Shown here: piece after piece, positions 1,575 through 50,379 of the stretch
Layout: each line of letters starts with the position of its first letter
How positions within the stretch are numbered: the stretch's first letter is position 1
IMG/VR virus record: IMGVR_UViG_3300045988_122195
Span: 50,227 to 114,226 of that record
DNA: 64,000 bases
Reading direction: 5' to 3' (one strand)
Source of the DNA: a virus
Made by a program: the position numbers and the translations under genes
The notes under the pieces: generated by a model
What the model was told of the DNA's origin: nothing
The model's input: the letters and a program-made list of their open reading frames with translations, nothing else
Databases searched by the model: none

Positions 1575-2855
1575 TTGAATCCGATATACGATGAATACAT
1601 TAAATTTTTAAAAGACACTTCTGGCGAAGAATTACCTTATTTAAAAGAAGGTTTCTTCTGGCTTGATAAACAGATTATAAAAGGTTTTGATAGTCAATTT
1701 GTAGAACATAAATTTTACAGAGTTAAAGTATCAGATAACCTAGAAAAAGTAGAAATTCTAAAATTAAAATCTTATGAAGATCCATCTGAAGTAGACCTAA
1801 TAGATTGGAGAACAATGATCAACATCAAAGAAAATCATTTGAGAGAAATTGAACATGAAGCTTTATGCCTAATATGTGAAAAGATCAAAGATTATGATGT
1901 ATATACTCCAATAATACCTGTTTCTATGGGTAAAGATTCTATGGTTACATGTCATTTAGTTCGACAACTATATCCAAACACAAAAGCAATATTTAACAAC
2001 ACATCACTTGATTGTACTGACACATATAAGATGGTTAAACGATTTCCGAATTGCGAAATTATGAATCCAGACAAAGGGTTCTATCAATATGTAAAATCTG
2101 ATTCTATGATTCCGTCAAGATTTTCAAGATTCTGTTGTAGGATTTTTAAAGTTGGAGTTATGGTTTCTCAACTTGATAATAAGCATCCGTATTTAATTTT
2201 TATGGGAATGAGAAATGAAGAATCAAATACAAGAAGCAATTATCAAGACGAATGGGTTAATACTTCAGAATGGGGAGACACATGTTGGCAAGGAATACTT
2301 CCTATTAGAAAGTGGACGGAATTGGATGTTTGGCTTTATATATTTTGGAGAAATATTGAAGTTAATCCAAAATATAAAAAAGGATATTCAAGAGTTGGAT
2401 GCCATTGTGCTTGCCCGTACTATGCGAAGTCAACATGGATTCTTGATAGATATTGGTATCCAAAAGCATATAAAAGATGGAGAAATATTCTAAGAGAAGA
2501 TTTTATTAACAATCAGAAATGGTTGATTATGAACTGTACACTCGAAGAGTATCTTACTCAAGCATGGAATGGTGGCGTGTTCAGAAGTGAGCCAACACAA
2601 GAAGTGATTGACGAATTTGTAAAGTATACAGGAATTGATAAACAGATTGCGCTGCAATATTTTAATAAGAAATGTTGTGAGTGCAATAAGAGAATAAAAC
2701 ATAAGGAAGTTCTTTCAATGAACTTAAAAATACATGGAAGACAAGTTAGTAAATTCTATTGTAAGAAATGTTTGATGAAAGAATTCGATTGGACACAAGA
2801 AGATTGGGACAAGCAGGTGGAGTCGTTTAAGGCTCAAGGTTGTGCGTTGTTCTAG
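1575..2855 (+). CDS. PAPS reductase-like / PP-loop ATP pyrophosphatase family protein with Cys-rich C-terminal extension
   Basis: 426 aa; PP-loop-like motif VSMGKDSMV (SGGxDS-type); C-terminal CHCACPYY and CCECNKR...CKKC cysteine clusters; TTG start in track. Confidence 0.7.
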   Translation: MNPIYDEYIKFLKDTSGEELPYLKEGFFWLDKQIIKGFDSQFVEHKFYRVKVSDNLEKVEILKLKSYEDPSEVDLIDWRTMINIKENHLREIEHEALCLICEKIKDYDVYTPIIPVSMGKDSMVTCHLVRQLYPNTKAIFNNTSLDCTDTYKMVKRFPNCEIMNPDKGFYQYVKSDSMIPSRFSRFCCRIFKVGVMVSQLDNKHPYLIFMGMRNEESNTRSNYQDEWVNTSEWGDTCWQGILPIRKWTELDVWLYIFWRNIEVNPKYKKGYSRVGCHCACPYYAKSTWILDRYWYPKAYKRWRNILREDFINNQKWLIMNCTLEEYLTQAWNGGVFRSEPTQEVIDEFVKYTGIDKQIALQYFNKKCCECNKRIKHKEVLSMNLKIHGRQVSKFYCKKCLMKEFDWTQEDWDKQVESFKAQGCALF

Positions 2856-2885
2856 GTTTTATTGGTAGAAAGGTGGTGAAAAGTA

Positions 2886-3242
2886 GTGTATCCGAGTGAG
2901 TTTTTTAAGAATTGTTCTCTAAGGACAGGAATTGACGTATTTGAAATTTATGATACAGATTTAAAAGAAAAATTAAAAAATGTGCATCCAAAGAATTTCT
3001 TAAAAACAACAATCACATTGCCAGTATATAAAGTCAATTTATCCTATCGTACTGAAAAAGATAATTACAAAACAGTTGACAGATATGCAGTAATGGACTC
3101 AAGTGCAGAAGATGAGTATTTTGATTTCTGGATTGATATGCTTATAAGAGATTATAACAGTAATAATCCAAATCATAAGATGGTAGATTGTGAAATAAAC
3201 AGCATTGAAAGACTTTGCGAAGCTGTGCTACCAATTGGTTAG
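2886..3242 (+). CDS. hypothetical protein
   Basis: 118-aa ORF between the two PP-loop genes; no motif recognised. Confidence 0.5.
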   Translation: MYPSEFFKNCSLRTGIDVFEIYDTDLKEKLKNVHPKNFLKTTITLPVYKVNLSYRTEKDNYKTVDRYAVMDSSAEDEYFDFWIDMLIRDYNSNNPNHKMVDCEINSIERLCEAVLPIG

Positions 3243-3421
3243 CTTTTCACCATATGTATTTAATACCTTTGTGCAGCAAAGGTTGTCACGATGATTTATA
3301 GAAGACGGATCATTGGTTAATATAAATCGAAAAAGCAATGTGATAGTGACGTAAAAAGACACTCACGAAGTATGGCTTTGCCTCATTGAAATGAAATAAA
3401 TTTCAGTGAGGAAAGTACATA

Positions 3422-4432
3422 TTGGTACAGAAAGCTAATACAATTGAGGAATTATTAAAAGGTTGTCCTGTAAATCAAACGATTTGTGATAATTTGATTC
3501 GTGCATGGGCAATTATCAACAATGATAAATATGAGAAAATCATTTGTTCAATTTCAGGCGGTTCAGACAGTGATGTGATGTTAGATATCGTTTGGAGATG
3601 TGACAAAGACAATAAAGTAGATTATGTATGGTTTGATACTGGATTAGAATATCGAGCCACAAAAGAGCATTTAAAATATCTTGAAGAAAAATATGATATT
3701 ACGTTTCATTCTTATAGGGCTATAAAACCTATTCCAACGTCCTGCAAGGAATATGGACAACCGTTTTTATCAAAACAAGTCAGTGAATTTATCCAAAGAT
3801 TACAAAAACATAATTTTCAATGGGAAGATGAAGATTTCAACACATTATATAAGAAATATCCAAAATGTAAGTCTGCCTTAGAGTGGTGGTGTTGTAACAA
3901 AGGTAATGACAGTTGCTTTAATATTACCAGGAACAAATGGTTAAAAGAATTTATGGTTGCTAATCCACCAACATTTAATATTTCAAACAAGTGTTGTAAA
4001 TATGCAAAAAAAGATGTTGCACATAGCATTGTAAAGTATGGAATAGACGGTAAATTATTTGATCTACAGATTATAGGTATTAGGAAAGCTGAAGGTGGTG
4101 CTAGATCAACAGCGTACAAATCATGCTTTGACGACAATAATGACATTGACAATTATAGACCTCTATTCTGGTACAAAGATTCAGATAAAGAAGATTATGA
4201 GAAAGTGTATGGAATTGTTCATAGTGATTGTTATTCGGAATATGGTTTAAAGCGCACTGGTTGCTGTGGTTGCCCTTATGGTAGAGATTTTGAGAATGAA
4301 TTAGATGTAATTAAGAAGTATGAACCTAAACTGTATAAAGCAGTAACAAATATTTTCAAGGATTCTTATGAATATACAAGAAAGTATGTGGAGTTTAGAA
4401 AAATGATGGATGAGAAGGAGAGAATAAGATAA
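3422..4432 (+). CDS. PAPS reductase-like / PP-loop ATPase family protein (paralog of 1575..2855)
   Basis: 336 aa; canonical PP-loop ISGGSDSDVMLDIV; C-terminal CCGCPYG cluster; TTG start preceded by gaggaaag RBS. Confidence 0.7.
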   Translation: MVQKANTIEELLKGCPVNQTICDNLIRAWAIINNDKYEKIICSISGGSDSDVMLDIVWRCDKDNKVDYVWFDTGLEYRATKEHLKYLEEKYDITFHSYRAIKPIPTSCKEYGQPFLSKQVSEFIQRLQKHNFQWEDEDFNTLYKKYPKCKSALEWWCCNKGNDSCFNITRNKWLKEFMVANPPTFNISNKCCKYAKKDVAHSIVKYGIDGKLFDLQIIGIRKAEGGARSTAYKSCFDDNNDIDNYRPLFWYKDSDKEDYEKVYGIVHSDCYSEYGLKRTGCCGCPYGRDFENELDVIKKYEPKLYKAVTNIFKDSYEYTRKYVEFRKMMDEKERIR

Positions 4433-4674
4433 TGAAAATTAAAAACCTTAAAGACGTAGAAACATTTCTCAATGTAGTAAATGAATGCAAAGGCGATGTA
4501 ACTCTTACATCACAGTATGGAGATAAATTCAATCTTAAATCTGCATTGACACAGTATGTAGCTATTGCAGCGTTAGTCGGAGAGCATGGTGATGAACTTG
4601 AGCTGTGGTGTTCCGATAAGGAAGATGAGATGAAATTTCTCAAGATGTTTGATGAGAATCCAGAGATGGTATAG
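4432..4674 (+). CDS. hypothetical protein
   Basis: 80-aa ORF; start ATG overlaps stop of upstream gene (ataATGa); translational coupling. Confidence 0.5.
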   Translation: MKIKNLKDVETFLNVVNECKGDVTLTSQYGDKFNLKSALTQYVAIAALVGEHGDELELWCSDKEDEMKFLKMFDENPEMV

Positions 4675-4828
4675 ATATAGAGAATAAATAAAATATAACC
4701 ACTATATGTTGTGTTGCTAATAGTATATATAGTATACTGGAGCATACATATATACAATATATAGTGATAAAATCACGACGAAATTCTTGGTAATGTGTAC
4801 ATAGATATGGAACAGGATGGTGAATAAT

Positions 4829-4984
4829 AATGAAGTTAAAACAGGTAAATAAATGTAGAGAATGTTTATATTATCATGATAAAAACAATACTTGTCAGTC
4901 TAAAAAATGTTCAACTTACGGGCATGGATATGTTAACTGGTGGGATCAATTGTTTTGCAAACCGTATAAAGGAGAAAATAAATA
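4829..4984 (+). CDS. small Cys-rich protein (not in ORF track, <60 aa)
   Basis: ATG at 4829 ... MKLKQVNKCRECLYYHDKNNTCQSKKCSTYGHGYVNWWDQLFCKPYKGENK, preceded by gga RBS-like; CxxC..C..C pattern. Confidence 0.3.
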
Positions 4985-5248
4985 ATGAAAATATTAGCGG
5001 TACATAATTACCATATCAAGAAAATAAAAACAGAAAGAGAATATTGTTGTTCATGCAGTAAATGTGGCACAGTCTTTGTTTTTGAAAGGTCTGAAGTAAC
5101 TATCCCAAGATGTATTAATCCGAAGCCTGAATATTGTACTATTATGTGTCCTAATTGTAAAAACATCATGTCATTAGATGTATGCAATGAATTCATTACA
5201 ACTGAAGACAAAGAGAATTTCTACAAACAATATATGGATAATATATAA
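4985..5248 (+). CDS. zinc-ribbon protein
   Basis: 87 aa; CCSCSKCGT ... CPNCKN cysteine pairs; RBS ggagaaaataaataATG. Confidence 0.5.
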   Translation: MKILAVHNYHIKKIKTEREYCCSCSKCGTVFVFERSEVTIPRCINPKPEYCTIMCPNCKNIMSLDVCNEFITTEDKENFYKQYMDNI

Positions 5249-7785: not shown

Positions 7786-8682
7786 ATGGAATTATTAGGA
7801 AGATATAAGAATGGCAATTATGTTACGACTATTCTGAGTGATGGAACGAGAATAAGAGAGACAAATGATGATGAGTTTATTTCTGATCATGCTGAAAACA
7901 TGGATATAAAAATTACGAATGCTTGTTCAGCAGGTTGTCCGTTTTGCCACGAGGGTTCAATGAAAGATGGTAAACATGGAGACATTTTAAACGAAAAGTT
8001 TGTTGACACTTTGTATCCATTTCAGGAGGCAGCAATCGGTGGTGGAAACGTACTTGAACATCCTGATTTAATTCCATTCTTAGAAAAACTCAAAGAAAAG
8101 AAGGTTATTGCAAATATCACAGTTAATCAGGTTCACTTTGAAAAAGAGCAGAAATTGATCAGAAAACTTGTTGATGAAAAATTAATCTATGGACTTGGCG
8201 TATCTCTTGTAAAACCAACAGAAAAATTTATTAATCTTATAAATCAGTATCCTAATGCAGTTGTTCATGTAATCAATGGTGTATTAACTGCGTCTGATGC
8301 GAAGGTTATGGAGAATAACAATATAAAGATGCTTATTCTAGGATACAAACATCTTAGAAGAGGTGATGTTTATTTTAAACATGAGAAAGAAAGAATCGAA
8401 GCAAATCAGAAATGGCTGTATGGGAACTTAGCTGATATTACAAATAAATTCAAGGTTGTAAGTTTTGACAATCTTGCGATTGGGCAGCTTAATGTAAAAA
8501 GATTATTGTCTGAAGACGAATGGGAAGAGTTCTACCAAGGAGAAGACGGAAGTTCAACTTATTACATTGATATGGTAGAGCGTAAATTTGCCAAAAGTTC
8601 AACTGCGCCATTTAATAAAAGGTATGATTTATTGGATTCTGTGGATGAGATGTTTAAAGTGATTCGAAACGAGAATAATTAA
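7786..8682 (+). CDS. radical SAM domain protein
   Basis: 298 aa; CxxxCxxC motif ITNACSAGCPFCHEG near N-terminus; RBS aggagaggtaatgaagaATG. Confidence 0.65.
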   Translation: MELLGRYKNGNYVTTILSDGTRIRETNDDEFISDHAENMDIKITNACSAGCPFCHEGSMKDGKHGDILNEKFVDTLYPFQEAAIGGGNVLEHPDLIPFLEKLKEKKVIANITVNQVHFEKEQKLIRKLVDEKLIYGLGVSLVKPTEKFINLINQYPNAVVHVINGVLTASDAKVMENNNIKMLILGYKHLRRGDVYFKHEKERIEANQKWLYGNLADITNKFKVVSFDNLAIGQLNVKRLLSEDEWEEFYQGEDGSSTYYIDMVERKFAKSSTAPFNKRYDLLDSVDEMFKVIRNENN

Positions 8683-10495: not shown

Positions 10496-11611
10496 ATGAA
10501 GGACATTAAGATTGTAATCGGTTCAAACTTTGGTGATGAAGGCAAAGGTCTTATGGCGGATTATTTCTCTCAAAAACCGAATAGTATTGTTGTGTGTTCT
10601 AATGGTGGAGCGCAAAGAGGACATACTGTAGTTACCTCAACTGGAATCAGACATGTCTTTCATCATTTTGGATCTGGAACTTTTAATGGGGCAGACACAT
10701 ATCTCTCAGAGGATTTTATCTGCAATCCGATTATTTTCAGACAAGAATATAATGAACTAAAACATTTGGGATATTATCCGAACATCTATATAAATCAAAA
10801 CTGTATGGTAACAACCCCATATGATATGATGGCTAATCAAATTATTGAAGAAAATCGTGGAAAGAATAAGCATGGAAGTTGTGGTCTTGGAATTTATGAG
10901 ACAATCAAAAGATATAAAGCCGGAGTAACTACTTTGTATGTCTCCGATTATATCCGAGATTATTACTTAAAGATTTTCAACAGAGAAGGAATTGTCTTAA
11001 CAAAGAAATGGGAAGATTTGTTCAATGATTCAGGAATTTACGATCATTATTTAGAAGATTGGGATTTTATGAACGAAGTAGCAACAACGATTTCTGACGA
11101 ATGTTTTCTCAATGAGTATGAGAATATAGTATTTGAAGCTGCACAAGGTCTTTTACTTGATCAAAATAATCTGAAATATTATCCACATCTTACACCTTCT
11201 AACACAGGAATAAAAAATCCAAAGAAAATAATTGAAAATGTGAAATGGGACGATGATATTAACATTGAGACATGTTATGTGTCAAGGACATATTTAACAA
11301 GACATGGAGCAGGACAATTTCCATCTGAATGTCGCAAGAATCGAATAAATAAGTCAATGTATGATAAGACAAATGTTCCGAATCCATTCCAGGACACATT
11401 AAGATACGGAACGCTTGATTTGAAAGATTTATATATTCGATGTGCTAAGGATGTGATGAATTTTGGAGACAAGAAATCAATTGCTATAACACACTGTAAT
11501 GAATACAAAATTGATGTTGAGGAATTAGAAGATATCTTTGAAGGATGGAATATTTATTATTCTAACGGAGAAACGCACGATGATATGAGGGAGGGCGCTA
11601 TATGGAATTGA
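10496..11611 (+). CDS. adenylosuccinate synthetase (PurA) family protein, C-terminally short; candidate PurZ-like
   Basis: 371 aa; GSNFGDEGKGLMADYF (PurA P-loop GDEGKGK), GGAQRGHT (PurA GGHNAGHT), FEAAQGLLLD (PurA FEGAQGTLLD), PSNT, HGAGQFPSE (PurA GAGPFPTE); lacks about 60 aa of PurA GTP-binding C-terminus. Confidence 0.75.
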   Translation: MKDIKIVIGSNFGDEGKGLMADYFSQKPNSIVVCSNGGAQRGHTVVTSTGIRHVFHHFGSGTFNGADTYLSEDFICNPIIFRQEYNELKHLGYYPNIYINQNCMVTTPYDMMANQIIEENRGKNKHGSCGLGIYETIKRYKAGVTTLYVSDYIRDYYLKIFNREGIVLTKKWEDLFNDSGIYDHYLEDWDFMNEVATTISDECFLNEYENIVFEAAQGLLLDQNNLKYYPHLTPSNTGIKNPKKIIENVKWDDDINIETCYVSRTYLTRHGAGQFPSECRKNRINKSMYDKTNVPNPFQDTLRYGTLDLKDLYIRCAKDVMNFGDKKSIAITHCNEYKIDVEELEDIFEGWNIYYSNGETHDDMREGAIWN

Positions 11612-23725: not shown

Positions 23726-23902
23726 ATGTGTAATCGTTGTGATTATGACTCACTTGACAATCAGATATATATTGATCCATTGACGAATGAATATTATTTG
23801 GATATAGAAACTTTTGAATGGGATGATTACGATGATGGATTTGTTCATCAACGAGAATATATTTTGTATTGTCCTTATTGTGGAAGAAAATTGGGAGAAT
23901 AA
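23726..23902 (+). CDS. zinc-ribbon protein (track 23687..23902)
   Basis: ATG 23726 after ggagaataaat; CNRCDYD ... CPYCGRK; ends KLGE*. Confidence 0.45.
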   Translation: MCNRCDYDSLDNQIYIDPLTNEYYLDIETFEWDDYDDGFVHQREYILYCPYCGRKLGE

Positions 23903-24399
23903 AAGACACAAGAGGTGGTTTGGTGAAATGTAGAAAATGTCCTTATGGATGTGAATCATTCGAAAAATACAAGTCATACATTGATGAGGAAGATATTGAC
24001 GACTATGTTTGGTGCGATAAAGTTGGTGGTAAGGTTTATTCTTTTGGACATTGTAGTGATTGGTACGAGCAGGATGAAGAAAAACATAATAATCATTCAA
24101 GAAGAAAGAAGAAAACCAAATATGAAAGAAACTTAAAGCACAAGAATCACATCAAACATTTGTATGAGACTGTTGGTGGTTATCATCCATCTCCTGTTAG
24201 ATACACAGATGAAGTATGGGTTAAGGGTGTTGGTTATGTTAAAAATCCAAAACCATATTATCAAAGATTATATCGTGGTAAAAGAAGCGGTTATTTAAAA
24301 CGACAGTCCAATAAAACAATTCGCAGATATAAAGGTGAGTTACACAATGGTTATCAATATATTCATAAAATTTTTGATTTTTGGTGGGATTATATTTAG
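23869..24399 (+). CDS. basic Lys/Arg/Tyr-rich protein (possible nucleic-acid binding)
   Basis: 176 aa; CRKCPYGCESF, RRKKKTKYERNLKHKNHIKH, YQRLYRGKRSGYLKRQSNKTIRRYKG; exact start uncertain. Confidence 0.5.
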   Translation: MSLLWKKIGRIKDTRGGLVKCRKCPYGCESFEKYKSYIDEEDIDDYVWCDKVGGKVYSFGHCSDWYEQDEEKHNNHSRRKKKTKYERNLKHKNHIKHLYETVGGYHPSPVRYTDEVWVKGVGYVKNPKPYYQRLYRGKRSGYLKRQSNKTIRRYKGELHNGYQYIHKIFDFWWDYI

Positions 24400-24429
24400 G
24401 AAGAATTATGAGAGGAGATAGGCTAATAA

Positions 24430-25065
24430 ATGAGTAGTAGCAGCATTTATGGAATAAGAAAAGATTATACAGGAGAAGAAATATTAGAGTATGAAAATTC
24501 GTGGTGGTTTTCTCCTATAATTTGGAGTGTCTTGCCAGATAAATATATTCATGATTACATTCAAACACCATTTGGCTTTAAAAAGGGAATTATTGGAATG
24601 GATGGAAATGATGTATGGACAAGAACTAACAAAGCCATTAATAAGTGTGATAACACACCTGATAGGATTTGTTGGGAAATGTCAAATCAACAGATTTTTC
24701 ATACATCTGACAAACAGATTATTTCAGATTCTATTATGAAATTTTTAAAGCAAAATGATACTTATGATGTATCAGAAGAAGATAATATCCCTGTTTTAAA
24801 AAGAGAACATATTATTGAAAGATTTACCGAAATAGCAAATGATATTTTGTTAATTGACGAAAATGAATTTCCATATTTTGTTTTTAAAAATACAACAGTT
24901 GATGATGGCGTTAAGAGATGGTTTAAAAAACATGATGAGGAATCTGATGGGTATGTTTCATGTGCAATGTCAGAAAATACAGATGATTTTTATGCAGAAT
25001 TTGTATTTATCAAAGATAGAAAAATTGACAAATTTGTAAGCAACAAAGATTATCAGTTTGAATAA
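24430..25065 (+). CDS. hypothetical protein
   Basis: 211-aa ORF. Confidence 0.55.
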   Translation: MSSSSIYGIRKDYTGEEILEYENSWWFSPIIWSVLPDKYIHDYIQTPFGFKKGIIGMDGNDVWTRTNKAINKCDNTPDRICWEMSNQQIFHTSDKQIISDSIMKFLKQNDTYDVSEEDNIPVLKREHIIERFTEIANDILLIDENEFPYFVFKNTTVDDGVKRWFKKHDEESDGYVSCAMSENTDDFYAEFVFIKDRKIDKFVSNKDYQFE

Positions 25066-25161
25066 ATTGAAATTTTTCTTTCATTCAGTAGTAATGAATG
25101 CTGCGTGAAAGAGCAAATAATTAACTACATACGAAAGGGAATAAGAGTAATTCTAGATAAT

Positions 25162-25177
25162 ATGCTTACGTAAGCAT
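25162..25177. promoter_or_regulatory. perfect 16-bp palindrome ATGCTTACGTAAGCAT 15 nt upstream of the MTase-like gene
   Basis: Read directly: ATGCTTAC|GTAAGCAT. Confidence 0.4.
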
Positions 25178-25192
25178 TGAAAATAAGGCAAT

Positions 25193-25780
25193 TTGAGCAA
25201 TACAAATGAAAGAAAAACTTCCACTGATGGACTTAGAGTGTTAAGTCTCTGTGGTGGTGTAGAAACTGGATTATACGCATTACAGAAATTGGATATTCCT
25301 GTGAAAGAGTATCATACATATGAGATTCTGCCTGAAGCTATTGCAGTTTCCCAGTACCATTTTCCGTTTGTGGTACATCATGGTGATTTATATGAAACGG
25401 ATTTTAATCAATTCAAAGGATTTGATTTGTTATTAGCAGGAACTTGTTGTCAGAGTTTGAGCAAAATCAGAATAGAAGACAAACAAGTTAACAATGGTTT
25501 AGATGGTAAATCGGGAATTTTCTTTAAAGCCATCGAATGTCTTGAGGCAATTCAGCCAAAATATTTCATGTTTGAAAACGTAATACCGAGTAGAGAAGAG
25601 GATTTAAATACAATGACTAAGTGTATTGGAGTTGATCCTTTACTTATTGACTCTAAAATTTTTAGCATACAATCGCTATTGGACAAGTTTACGATGAGAA
25701 TGGTAAATCAATTCATTTTCACGATCCAAGAACTGCTAAAGCAAGAAGTAAAACATTTCCAGGAGTTGCAAAACCAATGA
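25193..25780 (+). pseudogene. C5-cytosine DNA methyltransferase-like, truncated and possibly frameshifted
   Basis: Motif I-like VLSLCGGVETG, motif IV-like AGTCCQSLS (CCQ in place of PCQ), motif VI FMFENV; only 195 aa, no TRD/motifs IX-X; alternative frame near 25700-25810 reads protein-like YDENGKSIHFHDPRTAKARSKTFPGVAKPMTDQW. Confidence 0.4.
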
Positions 25781-25816
25781 CAGATCAATGGACAAAAGAT
25801 TGGAGAGAATAAAATT

Positions 25817-26011
25817 ATGACAATTAAATTTATTAAAGATGTGATCTTCAAAGACCAAAAAGAAGATAGCGTAAAAATTAAAGAGGGTAAGATTCTTACT
25901 GCAAAAGTAGTGATTAACGAAAATGGAAAAGAAGTATACGAAATAAAACAGAAGAAGAATGTTTTTACAATTCCATCTGCAATGAAAGATGTTGTGTTTG
26001 TAGTTTTGTAG
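25817..26011 (+). CDS. hypothetical small protein
   Basis: 64-aa ORF after ggagagaataaaattATG. Confidence 0.35.
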   Translation: MTIKFIKDVIFKDQKEDSVKIKEGKILTAKVVINENGKEVYEIKQKKNVFTIPSAMKDVVFVVL

Positions 26012-26072
26012 TTTTGTTCAGATTCTTTTGGAGAATAAGTAAGTATACAAATAATGATTGTGAGGTATAGAA

Positions 26073-26582
26073 ATGCTTAATGAAAAACAAAAGAATCTGG
26101 TGGAAGAAAATTACAAACTTATTTACAAATATGCCAAAGAACATAAGTTAGATTTGGAAGAATTCAGTGGATTGCTTTCTATCGGACTATGCAAAGCTGC
26201 ATTAAACTATGATGAAGATAAGACAAAATTCTCAACATTTGCGTTTAAATGTATGGGAAATGAAGTTGGTAATTATCTTAGAAAGATTAATGCGGCAAAG
26301 TATCTTAGACATGACACAGTATATTCTATGGAAGTATTAGATGAAGAAGACAATAGACCTATTGCTGAAACTTCATTAATGGTTTCTTCAGAGAATATTG
26401 AGCGAGAATACATATTTAAAACTAAGTTTCAGAAAGAATATAGCAAGCTGAAAGACCAAGTAAAAAATATTGTTGCTCTCAAATATCGTGGTTACACAAA
26501 CAATGAAGTTGCAGAAATTATGGATATGAAAGCATCCACTGTAAGTATGGCGTTAAAGAAATTCAAAATGGCTTTGGTTTGA
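26073..26582 (+). CDS. sigma-70 family RNA polymerase sigma factor (phage-encoded)
   Basis: 169 aa; region-2-like LIYKYAKEHKLDLEEFSGLLSIGLCKAALNYD and region-4 HTH ALKYRGYTNNEVAEIMDMKASTVSMALKKF. Confidence 0.75.
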   Translation: MLNEKQKNLVEENYKLIYKYAKEHKLDLEEFSGLLSIGLCKAALNYDEDKTKFSTFAFKCMGNEVGNYLRKINAAKYLRHDTVYSMEVLDEEDNRPIAETSLMVSSENIEREYIFKTKFQKEYSKLKDQVKNIVALKYRGYTNNEVAEIMDMKASTVSMALKKFKMALV

Positions 26583-26592
26583 GGTGATTAGT

Positions 26593-26964
26593 ATGAAACA
26601 TATGCAAGGTGTGTTAAAAGAGATAGAGATTCCAAATGATGTGAATGTGAATTTTGAAAAAATGTGTAGAGATATTCTGATTAAAGAGGGAATCGTTAAA
26701 ATGGAAGATCATCCATTAACCTATGGTTCTTTGTATTGGTCAGATATTCTTGAAAAAGAACTTGGTGATAAGTATGTAGTTGTTCAGGATTGGTGCTTAG
26801 TTGACAGACTGTTTGAAATTTGTAAATTCGAATCAGAAATTATAGAAGAGGGTTATGACTTTATACCAACAAGCTACGATAGAGAATATGTGTTTGACAT
26901 TGTATGCGACGAGTCGAAAAAATTTAGCGAAGCATTATCTCGTGCAGTGTATAGCGAACCATAA
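26593..26964 (+). CDS. hypothetical protein (track 26584..26964)
   Basis: ATG 26593 MKHMQG after gaggtgattagt. Confidence 0.5.
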   Translation: MKHMQGVLKEIEIPNDVNVNFEKMCRDILIKEGIVKMEDHPLTYGSLYWSDILEKELGDKYVVVQDWCLVDRLFEICKFESEIIEEGYDFIPTSYDREYVFDIVCDESKKFSEALSRAVYSEP

Positions 26965-27362: not shown

Positions 27363-27413
27363 GAGAATAAATGGCGAGTTTCGTTGGAGAATGTTTCTTA
27401 GGAGGTAATGAAA

Positions 27414-28115
27414 ATGTGCAAAAAAAGTAATAAATCAAGATATAGGGGGTTGAGGTTTAATTACAAGATAGATGGAAAAGTATTAATGGATAAATATCAA
27501 ACGATTGATGATTTTCTATCAACAGAATTTCCTAAGAATGATAATCCATTGTCACCTACTCTTAATACAGAGATTACGGGAATTAAATGGAATGGCAGCA
27601 CTATTTCTATTTCCAACAAAATTCACACAGTAAAGGATTTGACTGACTTATTAAGCAAAGAAAATGTAGAAAACATTTTTATTTCAAATAGAGATGTTAG
27701 GTTGCATAAGATTAAACCAAAACATGACGATCTTATCAGAAAGTCCACATATTCCATAGAATATGTACACAGTAAGGTTAAAGATGTTTTGTTTGAAAAA
27801 GACAAGCGAAATGCAAAAGTTGATTTTGATGGAGATTTGATTAAAGGTAATAGTCAACGATATCAGACATTTTTTACAAAAGGCTGTAAATGTTCAGTTT
27901 GTGGAATTGAAGGACAATATTTTGCAAAAGAAAGACATTTACAGGATAAAATTTATCATCTGAATTTGTATGCAGTTGATGATAATGGTGATGAAATTTT
28001 AATGACAAAAGATCATATTTTACCACGTTCAAAAGGTGGTATTAATGATATTAGTAACTATCAAACAATGTGTAAGCTTTGTAATGAAGCAAAAGGTAAC
28101 AAATTAGAAGATTAA
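27414..28115 (+). CDS. HNH endonuclease
   Basis: C-terminal HNH motif DHILPRSKGGINDISNYQTMCKLCNEAKGNK; additional CKCSVCG zinc knuckle. Confidence 0.65.
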   Translation: MCKKSNKSRYRGLRFNYKIDGKVLMDKYQTIDDFLSTEFPKNDNPLSPTLNTEITGIKWNGSTISISNKIHTVKDLTDLLSKENVENIFISNRDVRLHKIKPKHDDLIRKSTYSIEYVHSKVKDVLFEKDKRNAKVDFDGDLIKGNSQRYQTFFTKGCKCSVCGIEGQYFAKERHLQDKIYHLNLYAVDDNGDEILMTKDHILPRSKGGINDISNYQTMCKLCNEAKGNKLED

Positions 28116-28185
28116 ATAAGAAAGGGAAAGAATAGAAAAGTTCCTATAGGATAAAGTGCGCACTACTTACTAAGGTAAGAGGAAC

Positions 28186-29355
28186 TTGGAAAATAAAGAA
28201 AGAGCATTAGCACACGTAGAAAAGATTGAGTGGATCAAGCCGATAGAAGGAGCTGATAATATTGAACTTATTGGAGTTTTGGGGTGGGTTTGTATCGCCA
28301 AAAAGAATGAATTTAACGTAGGAGATATGGCTGTTTATATTGAGATTGACAGCAAATGTCCAGAAACAGATGAAAGATTTGCATTTTTAGCAAATAAGAA
28401 ATTCAAAGTTAAGACTATGAAACTTGGAAAGTTCAAAGTGATTAGTCAGGGATTAGCTTTACCATTGTCACTTTTCCCAGAATTACAGGACAAAAAGATT
28501 GGTGATAATGTTACAGAAGCATTAAAAATTACTTATGTTTCAGAAGAGGATGCCGCAAGAAAGACTAATAAGATTGATCCAAATGCCAAATATAAGTCAA
28601 TGGCAAGGCGTAGACCAAAATTATTTTCAAATCCAATTGTTAGAATGATTATGAGATATAGCATTGGTCGAAAGATTATGTTTATGCTGTTTGGTCGTAA
28701 GAAAGATAATCCAAAGAAATTTCCAGATTGGATTGTTAAGACTGATGAGACTAGAATTGAGAACGCACCATTCTATCTTCAGACTACAGAAAAGTGGATT
28801 AAAACTGAGAAATGCGATGGAACAAGTTGTACATTTGCCGTTGATAGATTGAAGAAAGGAAAGGACAAATTTGACTTTATTGTATGCAGCAGGAATGTAA
28901 GACAGGCTGATAGAGAACAGGATCGTTATCACGAATCAAATATTTATTGGGAATTATCCGATAAATATGATATTGAAAAAATTCTCACACAGTTTGCGAT
29001 AGAGAACAATTATAACAGAGTTGTATTACAAGGTGAAGGTGTTGGTTCAGTTCAGGGTAATCCATATAAATTTACAGAAAATAAGTTGTTTGTATTCAAT
29101 CTGATTATTGATGGTGTAAGAGTCGGAACAATGGAAATGGCTGATTTCTGTAAGAACCACGGTTTAACAAGTGTACCAATTATTGATACGGCTTATGAAC
29201 TCCCAAAGACTATGGAAGAAATGAAGCTTGAAGCTGATGGATATAGCGAATTAAATCCAAAGGTCAAGAGAGAAGGATTTGTATACAGGACACAGAACGG
29301 ACAGCAGAGTTTTAAAAATGTAAGTCGTGAGTATTTGTTAAAACATAATGGATAA
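28186..29355 (+). CDS. ATP-dependent RNA ligase-like nucleotidyltransferase (KxDG motif I, roughly 200-aa N-terminal domain)
   Basis: 389 aa; motif I KTEKCDGTSCTFAVD (K-x-D-G-x-S); TTG start after taaggtaagaggaac. Confidence 0.6.
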   Translation: MENKERALAHVEKIEWIKPIEGADNIELIGVLGWVCIAKKNEFNVGDMAVYIEIDSKCPETDERFAFLANKKFKVKTMKLGKFKVISQGLALPLSLFPELQDKKIGDNVTEALKITYVSEEDAARKTNKIDPNAKYKSMARRRPKLFSNPIVRMIMRYSIGRKIMFMLFGRKKDNPKKFPDWIVKTDETRIENAPFYLQTTEKWIKTEKCDGTSCTFAVDRLKKGKDKFDFIVCSRNVRQADREQDRYHESNIYWELSDKYDIEKILTQFAIENNYNRVVLQGEGVGSVQGNPYKFTENKLFVFNLIIDGVRVGTMEMADFCKNHGLTSVPIIDTAYELPKTMEEMKLEADGYSELNPKVKREGFVYRTQNGQQSFKNVSREYLLKHNG

Positions 29356-29395
29356 TAGGTGATTATGTAATTTTTATGTTTAAAGGAGATTTTAA

Positions 29396-30286
29396 ATGAA
29401 TAAACCAACATTATGGGTTATGGTCGGTTTGTCTGGAAGTGGCAAATCAAGTGTCGCAAAAGAAATTGCAGAGAATAATCCTGATACAGTTACTATATCA
29501 TTAAACAATATTCGTGAAGAATTAACTAGTAAAGTAGAAGATCAATCTAAAAACGAAGAAATATTCAAAGTATTTCACAAAAGAATCCGTGAGGCATTGG
29601 AGAATAATACTAATGTGATTGCTGATGCTACAAACATTACAATGAGGTCAAGACGAGCAATTATTGAAAATATTAAAGGTATTGAATGTCGTAAGATTGC
29701 TTATCTGATTCCAAAACCGTTTGATCAATGTAAGATTGATAACCTGAATAGACAACATCCTGTGCCTAAAGAAGTGTTAGACAAACAGATTAGAAAATTC
29801 CAGATTGTGTTTTATGAGGAAGGTTGGGATCTTATTAGAAGCTGTGGCTTCCTTAGAGATGATGAGATAACAATTCCAGATATATCTTTAAAAATGGAAA
29901 ATTTTGACCAAAAGAATCCACATCACACTATGAGTTTGCTTGAGCATAGTGATTATACATACAAATTGTTCGCTGACAAAGAATATCCAATGAGTTTTCA
30001 ATTAGGAGCGTTGCTTCATGATGTTGGTAAACTATATTGTCAAACTTTTGATGAATCTGGAATTGCTCGTTACCTTGACCATAATTCGATTGGAAGTTAT
30101 GTTATTTTGACAAGTCTTGATAGGTTCTATCATTACGACATCATTGATGCTTGTTTTCTTATCAACTATCATATGATGCCCTTTAATTGGACAACAGAAA
30201 AATCTAAGGAACGTTGGAAGAAAAGGTTTGGAGAATATAAATATCAGATGCTTTTAGATTTTCATGAATGTGATAAAGCGAGGTGA
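29396..30286 (+). CDS. P-loop polynucleotide-kinase-like domain fused to HD-domain phosphohydrolase
   Basis: 296 aa; Walker A VMVGLSGSGKSSVAKE; HD motifs HHTMSLLEHSDY and LGALLHDVGK. Confidence 0.65.
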   Translation: MNKPTLWVMVGLSGSGKSSVAKEIAENNPDTVTISLNNIREELTSKVEDQSKNEEIFKVFHKRIREALENNTNVIADATNITMRSRRAIIENIKGIECRKIAYLIPKPFDQCKIDNLNRQHPVPKEVLDKQIRKFQIVFYEEGWDLIRSCGFLRDDEITIPDISLKMENFDQKNPHHTMSLLEHSDYTYKLFADKEYPMSFQLGALLHDVGKLYCQTFDESGIARYLDHNSIGSYVILTSLDRFYHYDIIDACFLINYHMMPFNWTTEKSKERWKKRFGEYKYQMLLDFHECDKAR

Positions 30287-31554: not shown

Positions 31555-33135
31555 ATGGTAAATGAGATTATTAATGGACTTGGTGTTTTAGTTCCTGTAG
31601 TGATTGTAGGAGCAGGTGGAATTGGAATTGTTGGTTCTGGATATGTAAAAGCATCGCCAGATAAAGCCTATATCATTTCTGGTTTAAGAAAAGATCCAAA
31701 AGTTCTTATTGGAAAAGCTGGGCTTAAGATTCCATTCTTTGAAAAGAAAGACGAGCTAAATCTTCAGTTAATTCCAATCGATGTAAAAACATCAAGCGCA
31801 GTTCCAACAGCAGATTACATCAACATTAACGTTGATGCAGCAGTAAATGTAAAGGTTAGTAGTGACACAGATAGACTTAAACTTGCAGCAGAGAACTTTC
31901 TTAATAAACCAACTGACTACATTGGACAGGTTGCAAGAGAAGTTCTTGAGGGTAATATGCGTGAAATTGTTGGCAAAATGAACTTGGAAGAAATGGTTTC
32001 TGATCGTCAGAAGTTTGCAGAACTCGTAAAAGAAAATGCTGAACCAGATCTTGCTGCAATGGGACTCGACATTGTGAGCTTCAATGTACAGAATTTTGTT
32101 GATGAAAATGGAGTAATTGAAAATCTTGGTGTTGATAACATTGTTAAAATCCAGAAGAATGCAGCTATTTCAAGAGCTGATAGCGAAAAAGAAATTGCTA
32201 AGGCTCGTGCTATGGCTAAAAAAGAAGCAAATGATGCAGAGGTAGCTTCTGAATTGGAAATTGCAAATGCTCAGGCTGAAGCACAGAAAAAGAAAACAAT
32301 TGTACAGGCTAATGCCGATAGAGAGTCAAGAGAAGCTCAAATTGCAGCAGACACACTTATTGCGCAGAAAGAAAATGAACTTGAAATTAAAAAAGCAGAA
32401 CTTCAGAAAGATGCTGAAACAAAAAAGGCTTCAGCGGATGTAGCTTATAGTATTCAGGAACAAAATGAAAGAAAATCTGTGGAGATTGCAACGGCAGATG
32501 CTGATCTTGCCAAACAGGAAAAAGCTGTAGAGATTAAGGAGAAAGAGATTGCACTTACAGAAAAAACTCTTGAAGCCACTGTAAAGAAACAAGCTGAAGC
32601 AGAAAAATATGCAAAACAGCAGGAAGCAGATGCAAGGCTGTATGAAACACAGAGAAAATCAGAAGCAAGTCTTTTTGAGAGACAGAAAAATGCTGAAGCA
32701 GAGAAGTTTGAGCGTGAGAAAGAAGCTGAAGCTATGAAAGCGACAGCAGAAGCTAACAAATATGCAATGGAACAAGAGGCGGAAGGTATCCGTAGTAAAG
32801 GACAAGCTGAAGCTGATGCAATCAAAGCAAAAGCTCTTGCAGAAGCAGAAGGTATTCAGAAGAAAGCAGAAGCAATGAAACAGATGGGTGAAGCAGCAGT
32901 TCTTGATATGTATTTCAAAGCTATGCCAGAAATCGCTAAGAATATTGCAGAACCTCTTGCCAAAGTTGACAAAATTACAATGTATGGAGATGGAAACTCT
33001 TCAAAATTGATGAAAGATATCATGAACACCCTTAATCAGGTTACAGATGGTATGAAAGAGTCAACTGGAATCGACTTAAATTCTATTCTTGCAGGTTTTG
33101 CAGGTGCTAAAATTGCTGAATCTACAGACAAATAA
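31555..33135 (+). CDS. floT: flotillin (SPFH domain, FloT/YuaG-like)
   Basis: 526 aa; N-terminal hairpin anchor GLGVLVPVVIVGAGGIGIVGSGYV, SPFH core incl. EVLEGNMREIVG and GLDIVSF, long EA-rich coiled coil (AEAEKFEREKEAEAMKA), C-terminal KVDKITMYGDGN; collinear with B. subtilis FloT as recalled. Confidence 0.85.
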   Translation: MVNEIINGLGVLVPVVIVGAGGIGIVGSGYVKASPDKAYIISGLRKDPKVLIGKAGLKIPFFEKKDELNLQLIPIDVKTSSAVPTADYININVDAAVNVKVSSDTDRLKLAAENFLNKPTDYIGQVAREVLEGNMREIVGKMNLEEMVSDRQKFAELVKENAEPDLAAMGLDIVSFNVQNFVDENGVIENLGVDNIVKIQKNAAISRADSEKEIAKARAMAKKEANDAEVASELEIANAQAEAQKKKTIVQANADRESREAQIAADTLIAQKENELEIKKAELQKDAETKKASADVAYSIQEQNERKSVEIATADADLAKQEKAVEIKEKEIALTEKTLEATVKKQAEAEKYAKQQEADARLYETQRKSEASLFERQKNAEAEKFEREKEAEAMKATAEANKYAMEQEAEGIRSKGQAEADAIKAKALAEAEGIQKKAEAMKQMGEAAVLDMYFKAMPEIAKNIAEPLAKVDKITMYGDGNSSKLMKDIMNTLNQVTDGMKESTGIDLNSILAGFAGAKIAESTDK

Positions 33136-50000: not shown

Positions 50001-50379
50001 AGAACTTTCTTTAAAAGAAAAAATTGACAATCAGCATGAGATTCTTGGAATTATAAATATTGTAGATCCTGAAACAAACAAACGAATGTATTACGTGTCT
50101 GGTTTGGAAGTGTTAAAAACTGTTACAAACATTACTCTTTATGAAATCTACAGTGGTAAAACACGCCAAGTGAAGATGTGGACGAATCAATATAATAAAG
50201 AGCCTTTTGATGAAACTGATGTTCTATACATTATTTCCCTTGAGAAAAAGAATAAAAAAGAACCTACCGGTGAAATAAATCCAGAAACAGGTAAAAAAAT
50301 CTATGCAGATGTGCCAGATAAGTTTGAATATTGGCTCAAGAAATTCATAGTAAAGGAAAGTTTAGAAGATGATAGATAG
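47092..50379 (+). CDS. dnaE: DNA polymerase III alpha subunit (DnaE-type) with N-terminal PHP domain
   Basis: 1095 aa, GTG start; PHP signature FENYHCHKDFSNPTIADS; length/architecture of Pol III alpha. Confidence 0.8.
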   Translation: MERNKLIKEIIPTLNFKFPYETKDYCENLYFENYHCHKDFSNPTIADSGESIENYANRCHELKAKCLFSGEHGNQGNHFHVYTVAEKEKLRYRHSTEAYWVKDRHEKDRTNCHIVLVAKNAEGRRDINYALSMANIDGYYYRPRIDLELLMNIPKDNVIVTSACIAGWWYDDASDVWLKIHEHFQDNFFFEVQTNNTDPQKKLNERILRLSEKNGIDIIAGLDSHYINDVGEVKRDQILKYKKVTYPEEQGWFMDYPDMLTGLERFANQNVLDEKLALRAFMNTNVFVNECEEIVLDRSFKIPSMYKDKTYKEKCKIYMNDLNKAYSKEKIKSKDRADGIRYEAKEVMNSGVVDYFLTSKKIVEDAINNEGGILTTTSRGSAASYITNKLIGLTTVDRFNSDIPIYPERFLTKERVDAGMMPDIDLNISDQEPFIKATKKLLGEYGCMPLMAVEKLKKKAAWQLYAGANDVEPAMATQISKYIDEYEDALKYAEEEEKEFINVEDYIPEKYIDLFRKSNDYQGITINLKVHACGNLIFDGDIRREVGLITAISKTTGKRTLCACVEGGVLDDFGYVKEDFLIVDSVSLIYKCFKAIEREVPSFEELREMIKDDKPTWDIYEKGITCCVNQCEKASTTNKVKKYKPKTLAELSAFIAAIRPGFASLLNRFLNRSEYTTGEEKIDELLNDTAHFMLYQESIMKVLSFLGMKMGDTYGVIKSISKKKLKGEKKEKLLIELKKDWENEFGNLDNFSNVWSVIEDSAHYAFNSPHAYSMAGDSAYIAWFKAHHTSTFYEVAINHYQQKNKKDKINALIEESIKFYGYKLGDYKFGNDNRTVTVDEKNKLIYPNLSSVKGFGEGVVNTLYELGLKEYSSFIDVLTALTSNSINKTIINKLIRINYFDNYGDVNTLLQITTYFDLINGIKQMSKEKAIKNNIPFECLKKYGHETEKQFNKIDSVGLLNELVSNNKYKELSLKEKIDNQHEILGIINIVDPETNKRMYYVSGLEVLKTVTNITLYEIYSGKTRQVKMWTNQYNKEPFDETDVLYIISLEKKNKKEPTGEINPETGKKIYADVPDKFEYWLKKFIVKESLEDDR

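Follow-up and report, generated by a model that had tools for sequence, protein, structure and literature searches.

Why should a viral gene for a C5-cytosine DNA methyltransferase end after 195 codons, with a cysteine in place of the proline that normally precedes the catalytic cysteine, a second protein-like reading frame abutting its 3' part and a perfect palindrome just upstream of its start? The open reading frame (ORF) that raises this question lies in a 64,000-nucleotide stretch of viral DNA, positions 50,227 to 114,226 of the IMG/VR record IMGVR_UViG_3300045988_122195; this whole stretch is hereafter called the window, and all coordinates refer to it unless another locus is named. We addressed the question by comparing the window with related loci, 80 of them from IMG/VR, 7 from the encoding contigs and 1 from GTDB, which were grouped into four sequence clades, A to D, by their upstream region. 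The comparison makes us rather confident that the ORF is the stump of a DNMT3-like C5-methylase gene left by a deletion, and that this stump stands behind an invertible DNA segment (inverton) that carries the start of the gene.

A deletion fused two methylase genes

The features that define the truncated gene are as follows.

25193-25780, + strand: truncated C5-methyltransferase ORF with a TTG start, 195 amino acids (aa); residues 1 to ~162 are authentic and the last ~33 are an out-of-frame read-through of a second methylase gene
25676-25684, + strand: deletion junction, CTATTGGAC, placed by comparison with locus L014
25677-25812, + strand: 3' remnant of the second DNA-methylase gene (phrog_757) in another frame, stop codon included; 41 of 46 residues are identical to the L014 protein

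Residues 15-130 of the ORF match the Pfam family PF00145 (C-5 cytosine DNA methylase) with E=5e-14, the match covering profile positions 2-111 of 324. Motif I, with the FxGxG loop that binds S-adenosylmethionine (AdoMet, SAM), is present as LSLCGGVETG (LRVLSLCGGVETG), motif IV as GTCCQSLS, in which the proline of the Pro-Cys dipeptide is replaced by cysteine, and motif VI as FMFENV. A preliminary description of this DNA, made without database searches, had recognized these three motifs and had called the gene truncated; at the level of the profile the motifs are real and not coincidental, and the truncation is confirmed. The authentic part ends with ...IDSKIFSIQS, which cuts motif VIII (QxRxR) after the glutamine, and alignment with the relatives places no target recognition domain (TRD), motif IX or motif X (GNGW) in the ORF. 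Many full-length homologs of 308-313 aa and ~90% identity are found in a large protein database; these possess motifs VIII-X and continue past ...SAQS with RERYYWTN, a short TRD, RKLTEIEYERLQGLPD (motif IX) and MGNGWTEP (motif X).

The closest intact locus, L014, reveals how the 3' part was lost. Positions 3400-3474 of L014 align with window positions 25601-25675, and L014 positions 4673-5093 align with window positions 25677-26098 at 94% identity, such that ~1.2 kb of L014 between the two aligned blocks is missing from the window. The 8-mer TATTGGAC found at the junction occurs once in each of the two L014 genes, at 3487 in the first methylase gene and at 4673 in the second; the 1186 bp between the two copies were lost, and a further 11 nt (AGAGAAAGATA) are missing just upstream. 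Lost with this stretch are 146 codons from the 3' end of the methylase and, from the next gene (L014 4050-4808, 252 aa), most of the sequence, namely ~206 codons at the 5' end; that gene belongs to PHROG 757, "DNA methyltransferase" (E=1e-57). The second frame of the window, IAIGQVYDENGKSIHFHDPRTAKARSKTFPGVAKPMTDQWTKDWRE at 25672-25812 with its stop codon at 25810-25812, corresponds to residues 207-252 of the L014 252-aa protein (89% identity). The junction joins codon ~162 of the first gene to the last 44-46 codons of the second, an out-of-frame fusion that destroys both methylase genes. Thus, the gene is short through a deletion of ~1.2 kb at the shared TATTGGAC, and no frameshift or slip is involved. 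The alternative frame, previously taken for a continuation of the methylase, is indeed protein-coding sequence but belongs to another gene. In our reading, an L014-like ancestor carried the C5-methylase gene followed by the phrog_757 gene, and deletion between the copies of TATTGGAC fused the first into the tail of the second.

The same deletion allele is present in L007 (from JGI sample 3300029549; 99% identical) and in L114 (94%), and in the latter the stop codon has been lost, so that the ORF (P0002) runs into the next gene. Other truncated alleles of the methylase exist, with different end points.

Further rearrangements were seen among the relatives. Two related methylases, P0027 and P0095, retain the N-terminal half and have a wholly different C-terminal half, which in P0095 contains another TRD plus motifs IX and X and in P0027 is unrelated sequence; the break lies at the same YWTNI point as the deletion in the window, which may be a recombination hot spot. 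In L088, a prophage in a Clostridia metagenome-assembled genome (MAG), a 103-aa ORF beside the methylase gene (L088 9992-10303) has motif I of another C5-methylase followed immediately by motifs IX and X and is thus the second methylase to have lost its interior by deletion.

The 5' end of the gene inverts

Upstream of the stump, and extending into its first codons, the window contains a segment that is found in both orientations among the relatives.

25069-25085, + strand: left inverted-repeat arm, GAAATTTTTCTTTCATT, beginning 3 nt past the stop codon of the upstream gene
25086-25204, no strand: invertible 119-bp segment, ON in the window, containing a hairpin, a promoter-like block, a palindrome, a Shine-Dalgarno (SD)-like AAGG, the TTG start and codons 1-4
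25205-25221, + strand: right inverted-repeat arm, AATGAAAGAAAAACTTC, within the coding sequence (codons 5-10, NERKTS)

The arms are 17-nt inverted repeats with one mismatch. Whichever way the segment lies, this outer A/G mismatch keeps its side, and the crossover can therefore be placed within the inner 13 identical bases. The clearest case of inversion is L007, where a blastn comparison matches window positions 25069-25221 in reverse at 98.7% identity between flanks that are 99.1-99.5% identical over 10.4 kb, that is, a clean inversion of 153 bp. Relative to the window, the segment is likewise inverted in L009, L014, L016 and L114, and between L075 and L043 it is flipped amid flanks that are 99.97% and 99.6% identical. 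The orientation at each locus is that of the consensus sequence, and the comparisons run between contigs. With the orientation of the window designated ON and the opposite one OFF, both occur in each of the four clades:

Clade A: 14 ON, 4 OFF; arm cores TTTTTCTTTCATT (left) and AATGAAAGAAAAA (right)
Clade B: 42 ON, 4 OFF; arm cores TATTTTTTTCATT (left) and AATGAAAAAAATA (right)
Clade C: 5 ON, 9 OFF; arm cores TTTTGTTTTTAT (left) and ATAAAAACAAAA (right)
Clade D: 4 ON, 1 OFF; arm cores GAAATATTATTTTTA (left) and TAAAAATAATAATTC (right)

A second scan, of metagenome contigs with the exact pattern of the clade-A arms, yielded 19 further loci (11 ON and 8 OFF). Altogether, OFF accounts for 20-40% of the consensus sequences. 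Assembly artefacts cannot account for the two orientations, since assembler k-mers are much longer than the arms.

An in-frame start inside the segment is present in 62 of the 65 loci in the ON orientation and in 0 of the 18 in the OFF orientation; the 3 exceptions among the ON loci carry 1-nt frameshifts. The start codon of the ON loci is TTG in clades A, B and D and ATG in clade C. At the level of sequence, the orientation thus decides whether the gene has an in-frame start, and expression would be expected to follow. In the ON state, the cassette supplies the translation start and probably also the promoter; in the OFF state, the gene body is left without an in-frame start.

The arms vary in sequence between the clades and yet stay complementary, at the same positions and with a spacing of 119-141 bp. 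In relatives that have no inverton (L056, L077, L081 and L088, and the proteins P0052 and P0093), the protein starts at MKGLRVLSL, MKILSL or MSGLKILSL, and the N-terminal extension of ~13 residues that houses the right arm is absent. The 5' region shows 27 precise inversions as against 3 frameshifts, which speaks for a dedicated and efficient mechanism and against rare illegitimate events. In the window, accordingly, the switch is ON before a dead gene, whereas in L007 and L114, which share the deletion, it is OFF. The earlier suggestion of a phase-variable gene was therefore right in spirit: the 5' end of the gene inverts, by a DNA inversion that the preliminary description had missed.

Putative signals within the invertible segment

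Four elements precede the start codon within the segment.

25084-25109, + strand: hairpin at the left end of the segment, -7.7 kcal/mol, z -2.0
25133-25161, + strand: promoter-like block, GAAAGGGAATAAGAGTAATTCTAGATAAT, of the form GAAAGG-N15-17-TAG(G)(A/G)TAA, kept in clades A-D
25162-25177, no strand: perfect 16-bp palindrome, ATGCTTACGTAAGCAT, with a 12-bp core at 25164-25175, 15 nt before the TTG
25185-25188, + strand: SD-like AAGG, 4 nt before the TTG, kept in clades A, C and D

Hairpins of different sequence occupy the same place in the other clades; that of clade B (-15.5 to -17.2 kcal/mol, z -5.4 and -6.2) has a U-run behind it and looks like a terminator. Folding of the whole switch as RNA gave no significant structure (z -1.4), so that a long-range RNA stem is unsupported as the reason for the repeats, and an Rfam scan of 24800-26100 detected no known RNA family at E<=1.

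A block similar to the promoter-like one precedes the methylase in the inverton-less loci L056, L077 and L081. Within the window, only one further site was found, at 28120-28165 upstream of an RNA-ligase gene (TTG start at 28186), where the same block, AAGAAAGGG...TATAGGATAAA, is followed by an 8-bp palindrome, GTGCGCAC; this region closely resembles the one before the inverton-less methylase genes of the same three loci. The block may represent a phage-specific promoter and leader module, and we consider its function as a promoter probable.

The palindrome that the preliminary description reported upstream of the gene is indeed there, perfect and conserved. Its length is no evidence of function, given that 16-bp palindromes in the 64 kb are at chance level (2 seen, 2.1 expected in shuffles). 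Its reality rests instead on conservation with symmetric co-variation among the relatives, where five variants were found, all perfectly symmetric and with self-complementary central four bases:

GGTTACGTAACC: 35 loci
GCTTACGTAAGC: 15 loci
GGTTATATAACC: 8 loci
AGTTGTACAACT: 5 loci
GCTTGTACAAGC: 3 loci

That the central bases stay self-complementary favors binding by a dimeric protein of matching symmetry (at a putative operator or accessory site for recombination) over a simple RNA hairpin. In clade C, two ordinary hairpins take the place of the palindrome, in light of which the palindrome may also be a structure of the 5' untranslated region. The further proposal that the palindrome is the cognate site of the methylase is unsupported and unlikely to hold, since its center changes (ACGT, ATAT or GTAC) while the TRD is conserved.

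Downstream of the stump follow two genes:

25817-26582, + strand: a 64-aa ORF and a sigma-factor-like gene (26073-26582)

Within 24800-26200 we found no terminator-like sites, and both genes may be co-transcribed with the remnant.

Weighing the explanations

Several observations weigh against the account given above. A Pfam search of about 50 ORFs of the window detected no recombinase domain and no Resolvase hit, and phmmer searches with Hin, XerD and FimB, a crude query set, over 872 kb of loci including the flanks of about 110 loci, detected none of these near any inverton. The only match, a large serine recombinase, comes from L088, a prophage without the inverton. Contigs that carry the first gene of the window encode only more methylases to its left, and the last gene of the window was not found on record. 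With respect to the promoter, the segment contains no canonical sigma-70 promoter or terminator, and a good sigma-70-like site (TTGACA-17-GATTAT) lies at 25025-25053, outside the segment. Furthermore, the ratio of nonsynonymous to synonymous substitution rates (dN/dS) between the window and L114 is ~0.13 over the 151 retained codons, which is unexpected for a long-dead gene.

Related contigs are 85-236 kb in size, and judged by them the 64-kb window is part of a genome of likely ~85-205 kb; the invertase may therefore sit elsewhere in the phage or in the host; most likely, the inversion would be catalyzed in trans by a site-specific recombinase. Because the sigma-70-like site is outside the segment and none is inside, control of the translation start is certain and that of the promoter only probable, and the switch may act on translation only. 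Finally, divergence along the locus is patchy, ranging from 1 to 22 mismatches per 100 nt, and such mosaicism makes the dN/dS value not interpretable, as recombination with intact alleles can explain it.

Among the alternatives, the one that fares best, which we nevertheless regard as improbable, holds that the truncated protein (motifs I-VI plus the new tail) has been repurposed, for example as a SAM- or DNA-binding regulator, and is kept by selection. The presence of the deletion allele in at least three contigs (the window, L007 and L114), the 17 members of the protein cluster P0001, the low dN/dS and the fact that the switch still flips in this lineage all speak for such a role. In the C5-methylase fold, however, the domain for catalysis and AdoMet binding is completed by motif X together with the C-terminal part, and these are missing here. 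The tail is out of frame and, in L114, reads through the lost stop codon; L114, in the OFF orientation, has in addition a 1-nt deletion in the N-terminal arm. Moreover, other truncations arose independently with different end points, and the low dN/dS may come from intact alleles, as noted above. Judged by its sequence, then, the ORF is a dead remnant and a case of ordinary gene decay. The earlier suggestion of a decaying methylase holds to this extent, with deletion as the route to decay.

Still less probable, in our assessment, is that there is no programmed switch and that the two orientations reflect rare illegitimate events, such as template switching at short repeats, or independent insertions resembling miniature inverted-repeat transposable elements (MITEs). 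The lack of an invertase nearby and the short, A/T-rich arms with only 13 identical bases are what this explanation would lead one to expect, and on the surface, segment and repeats together look like a MITE. Yet the junctions are identical at all loci and show no target-site duplication, the window contains no other copies of the arms or of the segment, and the element includes the gene's own start codon, with its right arm coding. Flips are found in all four clades and also between genomes that are more than 99% identical, the arms co-vary across clades, and neither the 20-40% share of OFF nor the 27 to 3 ratio of inversions to other loss-of-function changes in the 5' region agrees with rare accidents.

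The original view was of an intact but frameshifted gene, to be restored by programmed slippage or by a homopolymer near 25650 that varies in phase, with both frames belonging to one methylase. It has practically no chance of being correct and is already refuted by the comparison with L014. Two protein-like frames do abut near 25676 and an A4T5 run is present at 25655-25663, but the frame changes at the deletion junction, 13 nt past this run, and so short a run would not slip efficiently. The second frame consists of the final 46 residues of phrog_757 and not of motifs IX and X of the C5 enzyme, and the ~146 codons with the TRD and motifs VIII-X, present in L014, are physically missing from the window.

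The cysteine pair is a trait of the family

The CCQ in place of the catalytic PCQ might appear to be another lesion of a deletion-born stump behind an inverton. The substitution is real, and its reading as a sign of decay does not hold: in clades A-C, (T/S)CCQ is present in all full-length relatives seen. The copy in the Clostridia MAG prophage L088 (66% identity) also has cysteine for proline and reads MCCQ, and clade D (L067) and the protein P0101 have TNCQ, with asparagine for proline. Distant phage homologs with 32-35% identity (phi92 gp043, Xoo-sp15 and S-CBS2) keep SPCQ. The loss of the proline must hence be old, and genes that show it retain all other motifs. As far as the sequences indicate, CCQ is a family-wide trait and not a lesion of the window copy.

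The best matches among solved structures are the catalytic domains of DNMT3B and DNMT3A (E about 1e-20). In the structure alignment, GSCCQSLS lies opposite GSPCNDLS of DNMT3B, with CC over PC, which identifies the second cysteine as the catalytic one; this cysteine also aligns with that of SPCQ in the phage homologs. The enzyme is thus classed as DNMT3-like, in a family with xCCQ, and is predicted to be active as a methylase. The full-length relatives resemble DNMT3-type C5 methylases (PF00145; TIGR00675, dcm superfamily) in motifs I, IV (with its cysteine), VI, VIII, IX and X and in the short TRD. They differ in that the proline of Pro-Cys is cysteine or asparagine throughout the gut-phage family, and the window copy differs further in that it ends after the glutamine of motif VIII.

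The Pro-Cys motif is usually regarded as near-invariant. In M.EcoRII, substitutions of the proline at the same site reportedly lowered activity without abolishing it. A family-wide change from proline to cysteine or asparagine beside the catalytic cysteine thus amounts to a natural experiment on a near-invariant motif.

The phage, its host and other genes of the window

The window encompasses a replication and nucleotide-metabolism module that includes genes for Pol III alpha, DnaB, primase, RecJ, NAD-dependent ligase, ThyX, FolD and NrdD/G, among others. A megablast search of a phage collection with positions 24400-26600 returned 0 near-identical isolated phages. The nearest isolates are the Clostridium phages phiCD211 and c-st, with about 35% identity in the polymerase. 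A scan of genome contigs for the host gave a single match, the inverton-less copy in the Clostridia MAG. The source is a large human-gut phage, with its host probably among the Clostridia.

Beyond the left edge of the window, L092 (1565-3129) and L093 (8005-9569) encode PF01555 N6_N4_Mtase and PF02086 Dam-like domains. With these two extra methylases, the number of methylase genes in phages of this group rises to at least four.

The genes upstream of the switch vary between relatives; in the window, two genes upstream of it, lies a cysteine-rich, very basic 176-aa ORF without a family match (23869-24399). Near the start of the window, at 1575-4432 and 7786-8682, two genes with PAPS-reductase domains and a radical-SAM-like gene may form a cluster for nucleotide or DNA modification. 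At 10496-11611 there is a short (371 aa), divergent gene resembling adenylosuccinate synthetase (Pfam PF00709, 7e-38); it could encode a PurZ-type enzyme for 2-aminoadenine DNA, but all NCBIfam PurA and PurZ scores are far under the cut-off. The RNA-ligase gene mentioned above and the KTI12/AAA_33 kinase-like gene that follows it (28186-30286), with an HNH endonuclease gene just upstream (27408-28115), look like a tRNA-repair module. A 526-aa protein with SPFH/Band-7 and flotillin domains is encoded at 31555-33135.

Possible role of the switch and comparison with known systems

What would a phage gain from such a switch? Methylation guards DNA against classical restriction and exposes it to methylation-dependent nucleases. 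Where the gene is intact, the switch would give mixed progeny, methylated and unmethylated, and thereby prepare the phage for either kind of host, those with classical and those with methylation-dependent restriction. Such bet-hedging would be the most likely purpose of the switch in these phages, and it fits the high share of OFF, the many independent truncations and the methylase diverging faster than its flanks. On this last point, the methylase genes of L075 and L043 are 96.6% identical between flanks of 99.6-99.97%, and those of L067 and L070 are 90.7% identical between flanks of 99.75%; the excess divergence points to an exchange of alleles or to diversifying selection. Downstream of the switch, several relatives have a further methylase gene (phrog_757 in L014 and phrog_11619 in L001), so that the switch may govern a small methylase operon.

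It is probable, then, that this family of gut phages switches its own DNA methylation on and off. As to the full picture, we lean, with some reserve, toward a programmed, recombinase-driven inverton that would toggle a CC-type DNMT3-like C5-methylase, and perhaps the downstream methylases too, in widespread large human-gut phages, with bursts and lysogens both methylated and unmethylated, an invertase acting in trans and a symmetric operator inside the switch. Switching may also explain why the gene is lost so often: the locus is frequently inverted, truncated or deleted, a pattern that fits fluctuating selection. What makes the stump itself valuable is that it drew attention to the switch upstream.

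Full-text literature searches returned phase-variable methylases of bacteria (repeat slippage; hsdS, PglX and Type IIG shuffling) and bacterial promoters that invert, and no phage-borne ON/OFF inverton on a C5-methylase; such a switch looks new for a phage, although both elements are known from bacteria. Known phage inversions include those of the G segment of Mu by Gin and of the C segment of P1 by Cin, in which about 3 kb is inverted, the C-termini of tail fibers are swapped and the host range changes. The methylase switch would share with these systems a phage-borne site-specific inversion that yields two kinds of progeny. Mu and P1 differ in that a serine invertase is encoded adjacently and an enhancer is needed, whereas the methylase switch measures 119 bp and a search with Hin had no match in the window or at the inverton-bearing loci.

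Bacterial invertons, such as fimS of E. coli, the capsule promoters of Bacteroides and the RecV-controlled switches of C. difficile, are similar in that short inverted repeats flank 100-300 bp and both orientations occur in nature; in the bacteria, the orientation sets the state of the adjacent gene, as it would in the phage. The phage switch differs from them in residing in a phage genome, in flipping the start and first codons of the gene, in having one coding repeat and no adjacent recombinase gene, and in controlling an orphan C5-methylase. The invertible promoters of gut bacteria (PMC10403206, PMC9881135) provide the context for this comparison.

Phase-variable methylases are known in the form of Mod genes, which vary through simple repeats, and of Type I hsdS, BREX PglX and Type IIG systems, which vary by inversion (PMC7672463, PMC9881135, PMC13076061). 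The phage switch would have in common with these phasevarions the stochastic, reversible switching of a methylase through genome rearrangement. The phasevarions, however, are bacterial and rely on repeat slippage or on the swapping of specificity domains between long repeats (at least 22 bp), whereas the phage inverton would act as a simple ON/OFF device through the 5' end of the gene for a monomeric C5 enzyme. If this role is confirmed, phages would vary their epigenetic state in much the way that bacteria vary their defence.

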